DNA of 32,000 bases, taken from the NCBI RefSeq assembly GCF_000008565.1, contig NC_001263.1:1790603-1822602 (forward strand). The letters are read 5' to 3'. The notes beneath the pieces were generated by a model, which was not told the origin of the DNA, made no database searches, and saw only the letters and a list, made by a program, of their open reading frames with translations. The position numbers were made by a program, and so were the translations under genes. This stretch comes from Deinococcus radiodurans R1 = ATCC 13939 = DSM 20539. Lineage in GTDB: Bacteria > Deinococcota > Deinococci > Deinococcales > Deinococcaceae. Below, piece after piece: positions 2,987-31,294 of this stretch (its first letter is position 1; each line of letters starts with the position of its first letter).

Positions 2987-3088
2987 GAGGAGAGGATAAC
3001 CCAGTGAGTTCACTTTCCTTTTGACAGTCTTCTGTCCCGCAGCCGTTGACACTGCCGCCTGCCCCGGCATCCGCGCTATCTTGCAGCC

Positions 3089-3136
3089 ATGTCCGCTCGC
3101 ACCCTCCGCCTGATCTGGTGGCCTCGCCTCACCTAG
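3089..3136 (+). promoter_or_regulatory. Candidate trp leader peptide ORF ([15 protein letters not shown]), tandem Trp codons
   Basis: 15-codon ORF with TGG-TGG at 3116-3121. TATCTT (3077-3082) lies 6 nt upstream of the ATG and there is no SD. A terminator hairpin follows, directly before trpG. Confidence 0.65.
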
Positions 3137-3163: not shown

Positions 3164-3200
3164 GCGCCTGGGTGAACTTCTCCGTTCACTGGGCGCTTTT
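3164..3200 (+). terminator. Attenuator-type intrinsic terminator in the trpG 5' leader
   Basis: GCGCC(3164-3168)..GTGAAC-ttctcc-GTTCAC..GGCGC(3192-3196) forms 5+6 bp with a small internal loop. TTTTCATTT follows. The structure ends about 15 nt before the trpG start codon. Confidence 0.6.
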
Positions 3201-3214
3201 CATTTGGAGTCTTC

Positions 3215-3820
3215 ATGTCTGATACCCCCCTGAGCCTGCTGCTGATCGACAATTACGACTCTTTTACCTACAACCTGGTGCAGTATTTCGGCGCTCTGGG
3301 CTGTGAGCTGACGGTGTGGCGCAACGACGCCTTTACGCTCGACGATGTGCGCCAGCTTGATCCCGACGCCATCGTGGTGTCGCCCGGCCCCTGCACGCCG
3401 CTCGAAGCGGGCCTGAGCGTGGACGTGGTGCGCGAACTCGGGCCGCAGTACCCGCTGCTCGGCGTGTGCCTGGGCCACCAAAGCATCGGGCAGGCGTTCG
3501 GGGCGCGGGTGGAGCGGGCGCAGCGGCCCGTCCACGGCAAGACGAGCGCGGTGCGGCACGGGAACACCGACCTCTTTGCCGGACTGCCGCAGGACGTGCG
3601 CGTGACCCGGTATCACTCACTGGTCGTGCGCGGGCTGCCGCCGGAGCTGGAAGCGACCGCCTGGAGCAGCGACCCCGAGGAAGAGGTCGTCATGGCGCTG
3701 CGCCACCGCGAATACCCCATCTACGGCGTGCAATTTCACCCCGAAAGCATCGAAACCCAGGAGGGCCTGCACATGCTGGAGAACTTTTTGCGCCTGGTAC
3801 GCGAGCGGAGGGCCGCGTGA
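3215..3820 (+). CDS. trpG: Anthranilate synthase component II (glutamine amidotransferase)
   Basis: 201 aa, class-I GATase. Motifs LLIDNYDSFTYNL, GVCLGHQSIG and GVQFHPES. GGAG SD upstream. Adjacent to trpD. Confidence 0.93.
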   Translation: MSDTPLSLLLIDNYDSFTYNLVQYFGALGCELTVWRNDAFTLDDVRQLDPDAIVVSPGPCTPLEAGLSVDVVRELGPQYPLLGVCLGHQSIGQAFGARVERAQRPVHGKTSAVRHGNTDLFAGLPQDVRVTRYHSLVVRGLPPELEATAWSSDPEEEVVMALRHREYPIYGVQFHPESIETQEGLHMLENFLRLVRERRAA

Positions 3821-4857
3821 CCGCTCCCACTGCTCAGTCCATGCAGGCCCAGCCCATTCACGCCCGGCTGATGAACGGCGAGGTGCTCAGTCAGGACGAC
3901 GCGACCGCCTTCATGCGTGAAGTCATGTCGGGGGACATGAGCGGCGTGCGGATGGCGGCGGCGCTCGCGGCCCTGCGGGTGCGCGGCGAAACGCCCGAGG
4001 AAATCGCCGGCTTTGCCCAGGCCATGCGCGAGAGCGCCGTCACGGTCAAGGTTCGCCCCCGCGACGTGCTGATGGACGTGGTGGGCACCGGGGGCGACGG
4101 GGCGCACACCTTCAACATCTCGACGACCACCGCCTTCGTGCTGGCGGGCGCAGGTGTACCCATCGCCAAGCACGGCAACCGCGCCGCGAGTTCGCGGGCC
4201 GGGAGCGCGGACGTGCTCGAAGCCCTGGGGGTCAACCTCGACGCCTCGCCCGAGGTGATTCAGGAAGCCATCGACACGCTCGGAGTGGGCTTCATGTTCG
4301 CCCGCAACTACCACCCCGCGCTGCGGCACGCCGCCCCGGTGCGCTCGGACCTCGCCGCCCGTACGGTGTTCAACATCCTGGGGCCGCTGTCCAACCCTGC
4401 CGGGGCCACCCACCTCGTCGTGGGCGTATTCCGCGCCGACCTGACGCGCACGCTCGCCGAGGCGCTGCGGCACCTGGGCGCGAAAGGGGCGACTGTGGTC
4501 TACGGCGACGGCCTCGACGAATTCACCGTCTGTGGCCCCAACACGGTCTCGGGCCTGCGAGATGGCGAAATTATTGACCGGACGATGCATCCCGAGGAAT
4601 TTGGTGTAGACCTGCACCCCAAAACGGCGATTGTGGGTGGCAGCCCCGCCGAGAATGCCGAAATCACCCACGCCCTGCTGACCGGCGGCGGCACCCCGGC
4701 GCAAAAGGACATCGTGGCGCTCAATGCCGGGGCCGCGCTGCGGACGGCGGGCCGGGTCGGGACTATTCGCGAAGGCGTGGAGCAGGCCCGCGAAGTCATG
4801 AAAGGCGGGCAAGGCTGGGAGATGCTGCAAAAGTACGGTGCGTTGACCAAGCGCTAG
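3817..4857 (+). CDS. trpD: Anthranilate phosphoribosyltransferase
   Basis: Motifs DVVGTGGDGAHTFNISTT, KHGNRAASSRAGSADVLEALG and NILGPLSNPA. The start is either the GTG at 3817, which overlaps the trpG stop (GTGA), or the in-frame ATG at 3841. The upstream part of the tracked ORF (3466-3816) overlaps trpG and is not coding. Confidence 0.92.
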   Translation: MTAPTAQSMQAQPIHARLMNGEVLSQDDATAFMREVMSGDMSGVRMAAALAALRVRGETPEEIAGFAQAMRESAVTVKVRPRDVLMDVVGTGGDGAHTFNISTTTAFVLAGAGVPIAKHGNRAASSRAGSADVLEALGVNLDASPEVIQEAIDTLGVGFMFARNYHPALRHAAPVRSDLAARTVFNILGPLSNPAGATHLVVGVFRADLTRTLAEALRHLGAKGATVVYGDGLDEFTVCGPNTVSGLRDGEIIDRTMHPEEFGVDLHPKTAIVGGSPAENAEITHALLTGGGTPAQKDIVALNAGAALRTAGRVGTIREGVEQAREVMKGGQGWEMLQKYGALTKR

Positions 4858-17110: not shown

Positions 17111-17173
17111 ATGTTCAGCGTGACCCGTGAGAAACCGGCCCCGGCGGGCCTTCTTCTTCGTCTGGGGCGTTGA
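17111..17173 (+). promoter_or_regulatory. Candidate leu leader peptide ORF ([20 protein letters not shown])
   Basis: 20-codon ORF with CTT-CTT-CTT-CGT-CTG (17150-17164). CTT is an atypical Leu codon in this GC3-rich genome. TACAGT (17099-17104) lies 6 nt upstream of the ATG and there is no SD. A terminator hairpin follows before leuC. Confidence 0.6.
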
Positions 17174-17201
17174 GCGCGAGTTTCCCAGCCGTTCTTCACG
17201 T

Positions 17202-17236
17202 GCCCCCCGCAGCCGAGTAGCTGAGGGGGCGTTTTT
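17202..17236 (+). terminator. Attenuator-type intrinsic terminator in the leuC 5' leader
   Basis: GCCCCC(17202-17207)-cg-CAGC ... GCTG-a-GGGGGC(17225-17230), followed by GTTTTTCG. It lies 32 nt upstream of the leuC ATG and its GGGGGAGG SD. Confidence 0.65.
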
Positions 17237-27555: not shown

Positions 27556-28722
27556 TTATTTCAGCAGCACCGGCTTGGCATCGAGCTTCATCCGCAGCAG
27601 GGTGTAGGGCTTGACGCGCTGGTCCTTGCCGAAGTGGTAGCCGCCCTGACGGTTGAGCTGGTCGTTGAGGACGTACAGGTAGCTGCCCTGTATTGCCAGC
27701 GTATCGGGCCAGATCAGGCGGGGGTCACGCGCCAGCGTTTGCAGTTCGCCGGTCGGCAGGCGGCGCACCAGGGCGCCCTGCTCGTAGTTGGTGATGTAGA
27801 TGTTTCCGGCGGTGTCCTCGGCCAGGCCGTCGGCGGCGCCCTTCTCGCCCAGGTCCTTCACCTGCTTTTTCACCTCGGCGTCGCTGAGGCCCTGGTCACG
27901 CAGCGCGGCGGTCGGCACGGCGTAGAGCCGGCGCGAGGCGGTGGGCGCGTAGTAGAGCGTGGCGCCGTCGGGGCTGATGGCAAGCGAGTCGGCCCCGAAG
28001 CCCAGGTGGGTGGCCGGGCCGCCCTTGGGCCGCTGGAAGAGGGCCTGCCCCTCCACGTAGGGCACGAAGCCAGGCACGGGCTTAACGGTCTCGTCGCCCG
28101 TCAGCTTGCGCCACGATTTGCCGCTGGCGAGGTCCACCACGATCAGCCCCGAGCCGCTCTTGGCCCCCGAGTCGGTGATGTATGCCACGCCGCCCGTGCC
28201 CTGACGCAGGTCGATGCGCAGGTCGTTGAGGTAAGTATTTTTCAGCGCCACGTCGGCAGGAAAGTGGATGGTCTTGACGACTTCGTTGGTGTGGGTGTCG
28301 ATGCCCACCAGCTTGACCGCCCGCTGGTCGAGAATCGGTCCCAGGTTCCTGGTGCCGGTGTCGAGCACCCACAGCCGGTCCCGGGCGTCCACCAGCAGCC
28401 CCTGCACGCCGATGAAGGTGGTGTCGGGCTTCGATAGGTCACGGGTGTTGATGGCGCGGTTGGGGTAGGGCACTTCCCGCCCGCCCTTGATCTCGGCAAT
28501 CGAGAAGGGCACGTCGTCTTCCCAGTTGGGGTAGGAGACGAACATGCGGCCCTGCGAGTTGACGGTCACGCCGATGGGCATGTGGCCGTAGAAGCGGTGC
28601 ACGACTTCGAGCTTGCCCGCCGCCTGCGATACGGGAGCGCTCGGGAGGGCACGCGGCAGCGCGACGGCGGCGGACGACAGCAGCGCGAGGCTGGTCAGGT
28701 AGGCGGTCAGCTTGATTTTCAT
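27556..28722 (-). CDS. Secreted major-royal-jelly-protein/yellow family protein
   Basis: 388 aa with a signal peptide MKIKLTAYLTSLALLSSAAVA. The beta-propeller-like body (VNSQGRMFVSYPNW, LLVDARDRLWVLDTG, GVAYITD, LNDQLNRQ) resembles the MRJP/yellow family, which is known to have a Deinococcus member. Confidence 0.75.
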   Translation of the reverse strand: MKIKLTAYLTSLALLSSAAVALPRALPSAPVSQAAGKLEVVHRFYGHMPIGVTVNSQGRMFVSYPNWEDDVPFSIAEIKGGREVPYPNRAINTRDLSKPDTTFIGVQGLLVDARDRLWVLDTGTRNLGPILDQRAVKLVGIDTHTNEVVKTIHFPADVALKNTYLNDLRIDLRQGTGGVAYITDSGAKSGSGLIVVDLASGKSWRKLTGDETVKPVPGFVPYVEGQALFQRPKGGPATHLGFGADSLAISPDGATLYYAPTASRRLYAVPTAALRDQGLSDAEVKKQVKDLGEKGAADGLAEDTAGNIYITNYEQGALVRRLPTGELQTLARDPRLIWPDTLAIQGSYLYVLNDQLNRQGGYHFGKDQRVKPYTLLRMKLDAKPVLLK

Positions 28723-29025: not shown

Positions 29026-30447
29026 TCACAGCCCCCCCGCCGCCAGCTCCACCGCCCGCATCAGGGCCGCCGCCTTGTTGCGCGTTTCCTGCTCCTCCAG
29101 CTCGGGCACGCTGTCGGCGACCACACCCGCCCCGGCCTGGATGTGGACCTTGCCGTTCGCAATCACCATCGTCCGCAGGGTGAGCGCCATGTCGAGGCTG
29201 CCATCGAAAGCGACGTAGCCGAAGCAGCCGCCATACGGCCCCCGGCGCACGGGTTCGAGTTCGTCGATGATTTCCATCGCCCGGATTTTGGGTGCGCCGC
29301 TGACCGTGCCCATCGGTAGCACCGAGGCGAGCGCGTGCAGTGGCGTCTGCCCCTCCCGCAGTTCGCCGCGCACGCCCGAGACGATGTGCATGACGTGGCT
29401 GTAGCGCTCGATGGAAAAGGCGTTTTCGACCTTGACGGTGCCGTAAGCGCTCACCTTGCCGATGTCGTTGCGCCCGAGGTCCACCAGCATTAAGTGTTCG
29501 GCGCGCTCCTTTTCGTCGGCGAGCAGTTCGGCGGCGAGCGCGTCGTCCTCGGCCTCAGTCGCCCCGCGCTTGCGGGTGCCGGCAATCGGACGGGTGACCA
29601 CGCTCACGCCGTCGCTGCGCAGCAGGCTCTCGGGGCTGCTCGCCACCAGTGTCACCTCGCCCAGCGCCAGATAGCCGAGGTAGGGGCTGGGGTTCACCCG
29701 CCGCAGGGCGCGGTAGAGCGCGAAGGGGTGCAGGTCGCCCAGCTCGGCGCTGAAACGCTGCGAGGGCACGAACTGGAAAATGTCGCCCGCGTGGACATAC
29801 TCCTTGCCCCGGCGCACCGCCTCCATGTACTCCGCCGGCGTGAAGTTGCTGCGGAACTCGGGCGCGGCGGTGGGCGTTTGCCCCGGCACCTCCGGCAGCG
29901 GGCCGCGCAGCCGGGTGAGCAGGCGCTCCACCTCGGCGTCGGCCTGCGCCTGCTCCTCCGCAGCCGCCACCACCACCAGCCGGTGCTTGAGGTGGTCGAA
30001 AATCACCAGCCCACGCGGCGCCACGAACAGCGCGTCGGGCAGCTTCAGTTCATCGGGGTTGGCGTCGGGCAGCTTTTCGTAGGCGCGGATGATGTCGTAG
30101 GCCGCGTACCCCACTGCGCCGCCTACCAGCGCAGGCAATCCGGCGGGCACGTCCAGCGGGCGGGTCGTGACGCGGTAGAGCCGGGCGAGCGGGTCGGCTT
30201 CCTCGCCGTCGAAGTCACCGAATTGCCCGCTGCTCTGCACCCGTCCGGCGCAGGCGCGAAACGTGCCCTGCTCGCCCACGCCGATAAACGAGTAGCGCCC
30301 CAGCTTTTCGCCCGCTTCCACGCTTTCGAGCAAGAACGACACCGTTTCTCCCTGTGCGGCCTTGAGGTAAGCGGTGACGGGCGTGTCGAGGTCGGCATTG
30401 AGTTCATGGACGGCGAGACAGGTCGGGTGGGCAGAGGTCTGGGACAT
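29026..30447 (-). CDS. trpE: Anthranilate synthase component I
   Basis: 473 aa. Motifs LLESVE, GAVGYAAYD, IAGTRKRG, HLMLVDLGRNDIG and GAPKIRAMEIIDELE. AAGGAG SD upstream. Confidence 0.95.
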   Translation of the reverse strand: MSQTSAHPTCLAVHELNADLDTPVTAYLKAAQGETVSFLLESVEAGEKLGRYSFIGVGEQGTFRACAGRVQSSGQFGDFDGEEADPLARLYRVTTRPLDVPAGLPALVGGAVGYAAYDIIRAYEKLPDANPDELKLPDALFVAPRGLVIFDHLKHRLVVVAAAEEQAQADAEVERLLTRLRGPLPEVPGQTPTAAPEFRSNFTPAEYMEAVRRGKEYVHAGDIFQFVPSQRFSAELGDLHPFALYRALRRVNPSPYLGYLALGEVTLVASSPESLLRSDGVSVVTRPIAGTRKRGATEAEDDALAAELLADEKERAEHLMLVDLGRNDIGKVSAYGTVKVENAFSIERYSHVMHIVSGVRGELREGQTPLHALASVLPMGTVSGAPKIRAMEIIDELEPVRRGPYGGCFGYVAFDGSLDMALTLRTMVIANGKVHIQAGAGVVADSVPELEEQETRNKAAALMRAVELAAGGL

Positions 30448-30476
30448 GGGCAGGACTCCTTATGGACTGAGCGGGG

Positions 30477-30513
30477 CACAACAAAACGCCCCGGGCGCGG
30501 AAAGCCGGGGCGT
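30477..30513 (-). terminator. Attenuator-type intrinsic terminator in the trpE 5' leader
   Basis: Minus-strand RNA ACGCCCCGG-cuuuccgcgc-CCGGGGCGU is a 9-bp perfect stem, followed by UUUGUUGUG. It lies about 30 nt upstream of the trpE ATG. Confidence 0.7.
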
Positions 30514-30538
30514 GTGCGGAGATAAGAAAACGCGGCAC

Positions 30539-30586
30539 TCAGACCCAGCGGGAGCGGGGCCACCACGAAGTGCGGCGGGTCAACAT
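30539..30586 (-). promoter_or_regulatory. Candidate trp leader peptide ORF (MLTRRTSWWPRSRWV*)
   Basis: 15-codon ORF with tandem TGG-TGG and a third TGG. TACCTT (complement of 30593-30598) lies 6 nt upstream of the ATG and there is no SD. It shares WWPR and a GCGU-U-rich tract with the trpG leader. Confidence 0.65.
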
Positions 30587-30643
30587 GAGGGGAAGGTAGC
30601 GCGGGGAAGGGCGGCGGCGGGCGGGGTGTCTAGCAGAGGTCGC

Positions 30644-31294
30644 TTAGCGCAGCGCCACCCAGCCCAGCGCCAGCAGCAGCGCGGCACCGATGCCCAGCAC
30701 GCTCAGGGCCTGCACGCGGGTCTTTTTCAGGAACAGCAGCACGCCGATGCCGGTGAGGGCCACCACCGTCAGAAACACGCCGCTGAGGTCAATCACCCAT
30801 TTCCACGCGCCGGGGGCGTCGCGGCCCTTGTGCAGGTCGTTGAGAACCGCTACCGCGCCCTGTTGCTGGATGTCCACCGTATACTTGCCGGTCTGCGTGT
30901 CGATGACTGCGTCGGCGCTGTAGCCGGGGGCCAGAAAGGACACGCTCGCCTCGGTGCCGTCCACCCGGGGGCTGTCGGCGTGCCCGTGCAGGTTTTGCTG
31001 CTCACGGAGGGCCTCGGCGGTGGTGAGCCAGTTGACCTCGCCGCCCTTGATCCAGCCGCCCGGCAGCGTGCCCGTCACCTTCTGCTCGACTTCCTGCGTG
31101 CCGAACACCCAATCGGGATGGTTGAGGGTCACGCCGCTCAGCGCAAAAAACAGCACCGCAAGCAGGCTGATCATGGAGGTGTAGGTGTGCAGCCAGCGCA
31201 GCCACTTGTTCGCCTGCGCCTTAGCATTGGGGGCCTTAGCGTTGGGGCGGCGGGCCGGGGCCACGTCCCGCTCAGGCCTTGCCGAAGCTGACAT
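30644..31294 (-). CDS. PepSY-associated TM helix family membrane protein
   Basis: WLRWLHTYTSMISLLAVLFFALSGVTLNHPDW is typical of PepSY_TM-like proteins. A second TM pair lies at the C-terminus. It overlaps the upstream gene's 3' end by 23 nt, so the start is uncertain. Confidence 0.7.
   Translation of the reverse strand: MSASARPERDVAPARRPNAKAPNAKAQANKWLRWLHTYTSMISLLAVLFFALSGVTLNHPDWVFGTQEVEQKVTGTLPGGWIKGGEVNWLTTAEALREQQNLHGHADSPRVDGTEASVSFLAPGYSADAVIDTQTGKYTVDIQQQGAVAVLNDLHKGRDAPGAWKWVIDLSGVFLTVVALTGIGVLLFLKKTRVQALSVLGIGAALLLALGWVALR

Follow-up and report, generated by a model that had tools for sequence, protein, structure and literature searches.

In Deinococcus radiodurans R1, trpE, the gene for anthranilate synthase component I, lies apart from trpG and trpD, which raises the question of what the 196-nt spacer between trpE and its upstream neighbor, a PepSY_TM-like gene, contributes to the control of a divided tryptophan pathway. 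We address this question in a 32,000-nt stretch of NC_001263.1 (1,790,603-1,822,602), referred to here as the window; coordinates below are window positions. An original prediction made from this DNA had placed a Trp-codon leader and a strong terminator in the spacer, paralogous to those in front of trpG, and had proposed that two separate trp transcription units carry related attenuators. Our analysis indicates that the trpE element is very probably a ribosome-mediated (leader-peptide) transcription attenuator and that, given the conserved leaders, the predicted antiterminators and the homology of the trpG leader, two related attenuators on two unlinked trp units remain the best reading of the locus.

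A Trp-codon leader and terminator in front of trpE

Inspection of the spacer bore out what had been said of its sequence: a 15-codon open reading frame (ORF) on the minus strand, trpL(E), carries a Trp-Trp pair and a third UGG (30547-30545), and is followed by a perfect 9-bp GC stem, a U-tract and the Shine-Dalgarno (SD) sequence of trpE (Table 1). The ORF ends 91 nt before trpE, has no SD sequence upstream of it, and contains a UGG-UGG pair that is invariant among relatives, with TGGTGG standing in every row of a 12-sequence leader alignment. The terminator arms read ACGCCCCGG on the 5' side (30513-30505) and CCGGGGCGU on the 3' side (30494-30486). Upstream of them lies a segment, designated segment 2, that has two possible partners: segment 1 together with the 5' part of the ORF, or segment 3.

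Chance can be excluded as the source of such a combination. When the 196-nt trpE spacer was shuffled 5000 times with its dinucleotides preserved, an ATG mini-ORF with a Trp pair arose once and never together with a strong terminator; the corresponding numbers for the trpG spacer, from as many shuffles, were three and zero. A generic scan of both window strands, which looked for TAnnnT 5-8 nt before ATG or GTG, an ORF of 6-35 codons and a hairpin of -12 kcal/mol or lower with a U-run, returned three sites: both Trp leaders and, in front of a leuC-like gene, a Leu-rich one.

Taken together with the folding analyses described below, this anatomy suggests a mechanism whose transcription start, ORF translation, pausing at the UUUUCUU tract and Trp response are steps that we infer from sequence. 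Transcription would start at the leader AUG or 1 nt before it, and the 15-codon ORF would be translated from the leaderless 5' end of the transcript. A ribosome supplied with ample Trp-tRNA would reach the UGA stop codon and cover segment 2, allowing the GC-rich 3:4 hairpin and its U-tract to form and transcription to stop before trpE. With scarce Trp-tRNA, the ribosome would instead stall at UGG-UGG and cover segment 1; segment 2, which starts 10 nt past the last UGG and extends across the stop codon, would then be free to capture the 5' arm of the terminator, and RNA polymerase would read into trpE.

Table 1. Positions of the trpE and trpG leader elements and of neighboring genes in the window.
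Feature	Position	Strand	Remarks
PepSY_TM-like gene	30644..31294		upstream neighbor of the trpE spacer
TAGACA box	30627..30632	-	28 nt upstream of the -10 box
-10-like box TACCTT (TAnnnT)	30593..30598	-	6 nt before the leader ATG
Leader ORF trpL(E), MLTRRTSWWPRSRWV	30539..30586	-	ATG at 30586, 15 codons, TGA ends at 30539
Tandem Trp codons UGG UGG	30560..30565	-	codons 8-9
Segment 1, GGCCCCGC	30554..30561	-	overlaps second Trp and Pro codons; partner is segment 2 (minimum free energy folds)
Segment 2, GCUGGGUCUGAGUGCCG	30533..30549	-	includes third UGG and UGA stop (constrained folds)
UUUUCUU tract	30524..30530	-	directly 3' of the 1:2 hairpin
Segment 3, CCGCACACGCCCCGGC	30504..30519	-	predicted 3' strand of antiterminator; includes terminator 5' arm
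Intrinsic terminator hairpin, segments 3:4	30486..30513	-	perfect 9-bp stem, -18.1 kcal/mol
U-rich tail UUUGUUGUG	30477..30485	-	paired U at 30486 just before
trpE SD AGGAG	30456..30460	-	
trpE, anthranilate synthase component I	29026..30447	-	ATG at 30447; Pfam Anth_synt_I_N and Chorismate_bind; exact protein AAF11345.1
Major Royal Jelly/yellow-family protein gene	27556..28722	-	immediately downstream of trpE; a family unusual in bacteria
TAGACA/TTGACA/CTGACA-like hexamer, trpG leader	3046..3051	+	
-10-like box TATCTT	3077..3082	+	6 nt before the trpG leader ATG
Leader ORF trpL(G)	3089..3136	+	15 codons; Trp codons 3116-3121
trpG leader terminator hairpin	3164..3196	+	
U-tract of trpG leader terminator	3197..3205	+	
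trpG	3215..3820	+	exact TrpG protein AAF11321.1
trpD	3817..4857	+	

The 1:2 hairpin encloses the Trp codons, with the UUUUCUU tract next to it (30524-30566, minus strand), and obtained a score of -17.0 kcal/mol in a scan for terminator-like structures; the trpE leader thus has two tandem hairpin-plus-U-tract units. By analogy with the 1:2 pause hairpin of Escherichia coli, this first unit may be a pause site or an early terminator.

Two further observations came from the searches of the window. The Leu-rich site, which has TACAGT 6 nt before an ATG at 17111 on the plus strand, spans 17111-17236 and contains an ORF with the codons CUU CUU CUU CGU CUG and a hairpin (17202-17230, -19 kcal/mol) with UUUUU; an SD sequence and an aconitase-family (leuC-like) gene from about 17268 come next. 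This arrangement resembles a leucine attenuator built like the leaderless Trp ones. TGGTGG itself occurs 48 times on the two strands where dinucleotide shuffles predict 19, almost all of the occurrences being within genes, and the excess is probably a codon-usage effect (GTG GTG, CTG GTG).

Conservation, a probable leaderless start and predicted alternative folding

Whether the mini-ORF is conserved was among the checks proposed for the locus, and the leader, the terminator and their link to trpE all proved to be kept in relatives. Relatives of TrpE were found by protein search and traced to contigs (loci designated by L numbers), giving a first collection of 13 leaders of the trpE and trpG types. 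Upstream of trpE, a mini-ORF with two or three successive Trp codons and a Pro codon, followed by a terminator, is present in a Deinococcus sp. (L081, MTVNGAWWWPGNCLG), D. geothermalis (L082, MTVNGAWWWPSFAWA), D. soli (L084/85, MTVSGAWWWPRNSWV), D. peraridilitoris (L086, with a leader of 30 codons ending in WWWPS), three relatives whose TrpE is 87%, 88% and 86% identical (L087, MFACRAQWWPRFRRV; L098, MFACRAQWWPRFRWV; L099, MFLPRAQWWPGLVRV) and Deinobacterium chartae (L100, MNAYVTYWWWQPEKPRV). Twelve leaders could be aligned from end to end, with a mean column identity of 61%, and the base of the terminator stem is 98.6% paired over these 12, with exchanges of G-C for A-U.

A metagenome scan with a single pattern (CGCTAnnnT-N6-ATG-N18-TGGTGGCCC) gave 24 matches. 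These include three more Deinococcus-type leaders at four loci (L115, L119/L121 and L124), with a downstream trpE confirmed in L115, L121 and L124, and a Thermus-like leader, MALPSALWWPG followed by a stop codon, on eight contigs, where it directly precedes trpE in five and trpE is followed by trpG and trpD in three (L102, L107 and L109). The occurrence of Trp-Trp leaders before trpE in Deinococcus, Deinobacterium and Thermus-like contigs argues that the leader design is old and widespread in Deinococcota.

The Thermus-like contigs (L102, L107, L109, L118 and L120; also L103, L105 and L110) have a GC content of 0.68-0.72, carry leaderless MALPSALWWPG or MALSPALWWPG ORFs, each closed by a stop codon, and, where trpE follows, show 58-60% TrpE identity over the near-full-length matches. 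Their leaders contain three CCCCGGGG repeats that are able to form either an antiterminator or a terminator. We take these contigs to be Thermus, presumably, from their GC content and from the N-terminus of TrpE. On the minus strand of a further contig (L108), 852 nt short of where the reverse-complemented locus ends, a leader reading MSFQVQVWWPA and a stop codon lies before a tryptophanyl-tRNA synthetase gene and has a 13-bp terminator of -30 kcal/mol, suggesting that the same switch design also serves trpS in some high-GC organism.

Examination of the sequences upstream of the leader ORFs revealed GCTAnnnT or a near match to it, 6-7 nt ahead of the ATG, in 13/13 of the first-collected leaders, none of which (0/13) has a purine-rich SD sequence; a TAnnnT box also precedes the Leu leader. 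In the trpE spacer, the TACCTT box implies that transcription would start at or next to the leader AUG. In D. deserti, differential RNA sequencing (dRNA-seq) has shown the -10 motif to stand immediately before start codons that are leaderless, and has mapped the transcription start site of trpEGD 1 nt ahead of the first codon of a putative leader peptide (PMC4007540). By the match of its -10/ATG geometry to that of D. deserti, the Trp leader ORFs of D. radiodurans are most likely read from leaderless transcripts.

A hexamer resembling TAGACA, TTGACA or CTGACA lies 25-30 nt upstream of the -10 box in about 10 of the 13 leaders; in addition to both D. radiodurans leaders (Table 1), it stands in the same place in L098, L087, L099, L086, L100, L092 and L094, and it is absent from the Leu leader. 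The box is too far upstream for a normal -35 element, and a conserved -35 motif is generally absent from Deinococcus promoters (PMC4007540). It may be a regulator site.

To follow the consequences of ribosome position, nascent leaders were folded up to the 3' arm of the terminator after masking the bases that the ribosome would occupy. When the A site holds the second Trp codon, segment 2 takes up 7-11 nt of the 5' arm of the terminator in 13/13 leaders, at -14 to -24 kcal/mol. In all 13, segment 2 begins 7-13 nt (mostly 10) past the last UGG and either runs across the stop codon or adjoins it; a ribosome at the stop codon covers this segment, leaving structure of 0 to -8 kcal/mol. Six of the eight metagenome leaders that were folded show the same alternative folding, their residual structure with the ribosome at the stop being -4 to -9 kcal/mol; in the other two (L111 and L114) the folding script located no terminator. 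In D. radiodurans trpE, the predicted antiterminator pairs GCUGGG..GUGC with GCAC..CCCGGC.

Comparison of individual leaders lends these predicted pairings further support. L082 has GCCUGGGC in segment 2, GCCCAGG in segment 3 and CCACCGGGC in segment 4, where L124 has GCUUGGGC, GCCCAAG and CCACUGGGC; a G-to-A change in segment 3 is met by C-to-U changes in both segment 2 and segment 4, and one change is thus compensated in two mutually exclusive helices. The trpG-type leaders show a G-C to A-U exchange at the equivalent position of the segment 2:segment 3 helix (CCUAGGCG with CGCCUGGG), and the trpG leader terminator shows a U-A to C-G exchange in L096. Compensatory changes accordingly accompany the predicted alternative pairings. 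In fixed windows, segment 2:segment 3 duplexes average -17.7 kcal/mol when cognate and -13.6 kcal/mol when not, and no permutation out of 20000 did as well as the cognate set, in a test that the relatedness of the leaders inflates.

The comparisons also clarify the third Trp codon of the leader, which the original prediction had counted with the tandem pair. The codon is there, and a conserved regulatory role for it did not hold up: it is replaced by CGG (Arg) in L087 and L099, and the conserved CCUGGG stands in L081 in another reading frame. The third Trp accordingly counts as a by-product of RNA segment 2 rather than as a regulatory codon.

Several results count against an attenuator in front of trpE. 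The U-tract of its terminator is interrupted (UUUUGUUGUG). Its antiterminator, at -14.8 kcal/mol and with one G-U pair, is weaker than every other in the set and, considered alone, is no better than shuffles (42/500 as good), and its segment 2 shows no preference for its own segment 3 over those of other species. Covariation in a MAFFT alignment, by RNAalifold and column-wise pair counts, is modest, with 81-85% paired cells and few double changes. The last of these results reflects 1-nt offsets in register between leaders, as counted from the stop codon; since, in addition, the upper terminator stems vary in length among leaders, alignment-free tests (masked folds and the swap of segments between species) were used. 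Finally, a close relative (L091), with a TrpE that is 86% identical and the same DUF2271-PepSY_TM-trpE synteny, has neither a Trp leader nor a terminator: its spacer amounts to 40 nt (L091:6352-6392), and TATTCT stands 7 nt ahead of the ATG of trpE, which itself looks leaderless there. The attenuator is therefore dispensable in at least one lineage.

These weaknesses of the D. radiodurans antiterminator and the loss in L091 would suit a decaying relic or a plain terminator, in which the hairpin merely ends or insulates transcription of the PepSY_TM gene and the mini-ORF no longer regulates trpE. So would the presence of two Trp codons where most relatives have three, and a leader nucleotide identity to close relatives (73-76%) that is slightly above that of the 4-fold sites of trpE (66-71%). 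Set against this, the window, L098, L087 and L099 agree in ORF length, in the positions of the Trp pair and the stop codon, and in having the -10 box and a terminator, despite altered terminator sequences, and the element accompanies trpE beside differing upstream genes. L091, moreover, has the same upstream gene without any hairpin, and that gene therefore does not need one. We consider a relic quite unlikely and retain the reading of the trpE element as an attenuator.

A different possibility is that the Trp signal is read in another way, by a TRAP-like protein, a T-box, Rho-dependent polarity or translational control. The 1:2 hairpin and the UUUUCUU tract could on their own stop an untranslated RNA early, and direct evidence for any of these was not found in our analysis. 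The T-box was rejected for want of an Rfam match: no Rfam family, Trp_leader included, matched the window at gathering score, and even at E<=10 either leader drew only chance-level matches to unrelated small RNAs (sRNAs). A TRAP site needs 9-11 (G/U)AG repeats, and TRAP was rejected on the two such triplets found in each leader. Moreover, the conserved geometry of Trp codons, segment 2 and stop codon, together with the three-way compensation, is what a ribosome-based model predicts. Alternative sensing is, in our judgment, highly unlikely, and ribosome-mediated attenuation remains the preferred reading for trpE.

Two homologous leaders on a divided operon

The leader in front of trpG-trpD (Table 1) shares WWPR and the GCGU(C)UUUUCUU tract with that of trpE, as had been noted at the outset. 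Besides D. radiodurans, trpG leaders are found in D. wulumuqiensis (L092/93, MTARNAPTIWWPSLA), L094/95 and L096/97 (MTARALWWPRSR). They were seen only where trpGD stands apart from trpE, and the trpG leader is kept within the radiodurans clade. Elsewhere, the genes run in the order leader-trpE-(0 or 1 small gene)-trpG-trpD (L081, L082, L084, L085, L086, L100, L102, L107, L109 and L115), and a direct reading of the trpE-trpG gap in L081 showed no second Trp-Trp leader.

The claim that the two leaders are paralogous was put to the test by comparing local alignment scores with those of 1000 shuffles, and it stood through relatives rather than through the two D. radiodurans leaders themselves. Aligned directly, these are only weakly alike (z 2.9, with 19/1000 shuffles as good), a result that weakens the case for common descent and would suit convergence, in which GC-rich Trp attenuators would all come to share UGG-UGG, a GC hairpin and a U-tract. 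Relatives, however, bridge the gap: between the Trp codons and the U-tract, a stretch of about 95 nt, the D. wulumuqiensis trpG leader (L092) can be aligned to the trpE leaders of L081 (z 9.8) and L082 (z 8.5), and the L096 trpG leader shares 19 identical nucleotides (TGGTGGCCCCGCTCCCGCT) with the D. radiodurans trpE leader (z 6.7), each with 0/1000 shuffles as good. Both types also have the promoter context GCGCTAnnnT-N6-ATG, and both are 15 codons long in D. radiodurans, as is the leader of D. wulumuqiensis (L092, and also L094), the L096 trpG leader having 12. The trpG-type terminator (GCGCCUGGGUGAAC..GUUCACCGGGCGC UUUUUCUUUGG) is nearer to the common trpE-type terminator (GCGCCCAGGUGGA..CCACCGGGCGCAUUUUUCUUUG) than the D. 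radiodurans trpE terminator is. We therefore regard convergence as unlikely; by these comparisons, the trpG leader is clearly homologous to trpE-type leaders.

The simplest history compatible with these observations is that an ancestral attenuator was duplicated, alone or with the operon, and that complementary loss followed. Most Deinococcaceae would retain the original state, with a single attenuator before trpE-x-trpG-trpD; in the radiodurans clade the operon would have been split, leaving a homologous copy before trpG-trpD, so that both units would respond to the same signal. The locus thus offers a natural example of the fate of an attenuator after an operon splits, with both halves carrying homologous copies and a near relative (L091) having dropped the trpE copy.

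Comparison with known systems

Leader-peptide attenuation of trp genes is textbook knowledge, and the trpE leader is a new example of that mechanism rather than a new mechanism; it leaves attenuation as understood unchanged. Like E. coli trpL (Yanofsky 1981, as summarised in PMC4007540), it has a short ORF with tandem Trp codons, the logic of 1:2, 2:3 and 3:4 pairing and a terminator before trpE, and in both a stalled ribosome would favor the antiterminator while a ribosome at the stop codon would block segment 2. Unlike trpL, the D. radiodurans leader has no SD sequence, its ORF would lie at the 5' end of the transcript, its stop codon lies inside segment 2, and it would control trpE alone instead of a whole operon. 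The two leaders have no sequence similarity, in keeping with the lack of an Rfam Trp_leader match.

Merino and colleagues reportedly predicted a TrpL in D. radiodurans in 2008, and we infer that this prediction lay upstream of trpE. With reference to that 2008 work, Deinococcus has also been cited among the taxa with trpL attenuators (PMC7968998). A 2020 survey, whose search required a ribosome-binding site (RBS), found no TrpL where one had earlier been predicted in D. radiodurans and listed only the trpGD peptide, given in its Suppl. Data 1 with the RBS entry "no good candidate" (PMC7755916). The RBS requirement would explain the miss, if the earlier prediction lay upstream of trpE. The present analysis settles this small inconsistency in the literature: a Trp-Trp leader exists upstream of trpE, without an RBS, and fits a leaderless ORF.

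Leaderless leader peptides have precedents. For D. deserti, de Groot et al. (2014, PMC4007540) reported leaderless leader peptides, one on the trpEGD mRNA and 13 others; its trp leader belongs to the same genus, has a -10 motif directly before the leader AUG and is predicted to attenuate trp genes. A single D. deserti leader, whose orthology we assume from position, serves trpEGD together; the divided genes of D. radiodurans have two. In Actinobacteria, short-ORF attenuators on leaderless transcripts, among them those from Corynebacterium RNA sequencing (PMC3890552) and the mycobacterial poly-Cys ORFs (bioRxiv 10.1101/834739), are reported to be similar in that they are amino-acid-responsive leader ORFs; they differ in phylum and in the amino acids concerned. 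The leaderless Trp attenuator appears common to Deinococcus, Deinobacterium and Thermus-like genomes.

Divided pathways, too, are controlled in more than one way. In Sinorhizobium meliloti, the trp genes likewise lie in several operons with a leader-peptide attenuator before trpE(G); only one operon has an attenuator, however, and the released attenuator RNA acts in trans on another trp operon (PMC6614838), where D. radiodurans has a second cis attenuator instead. A further layer of control seems doubtful for D. radiodurans, whether it be terminated leader RNAs of about 100 nt or WWP peptides that would act in trans on trpS or on the remaining unlinked trp genes, in the manner of rnTrpL/peTrpL in Sinorhizobium, or a Trp-responsive transcription factor that would have its site in the TAGACA/TTGACA box. 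The trpC, trpF, trpBA and aro genes of this organism lie outside the window.

The closest counterpart to the D. radiodurans pair is found in Pseudomonas. Olekhnovich and Gussin are said to have described, in 2001, attenuators of P. putida at trpL1 (trpE) and trpL2 (trpGDC). In P. aeruginosa PA14, trpE and trpGDC are transcribed independently, each with a tested trpL leader that shares a motif with the other (PMC13434334). Two related attenuators that coordinate a split pathway are thus an established arrangement, and D. radiodurans would represent it in another phylum with an unrelated leader (WWPR, as opposed to RWRWRA in Pseudomonas); the Pseudomonas leaders have been tested by reporter fusions and codon substitutions, whereas the Deinococcus pair is a prediction. 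What the Deinococcus pair most usefully adds to these known systems is the leaderless design, a duplicated attenuator in an operon that has split and the correction of a gap in the literature.

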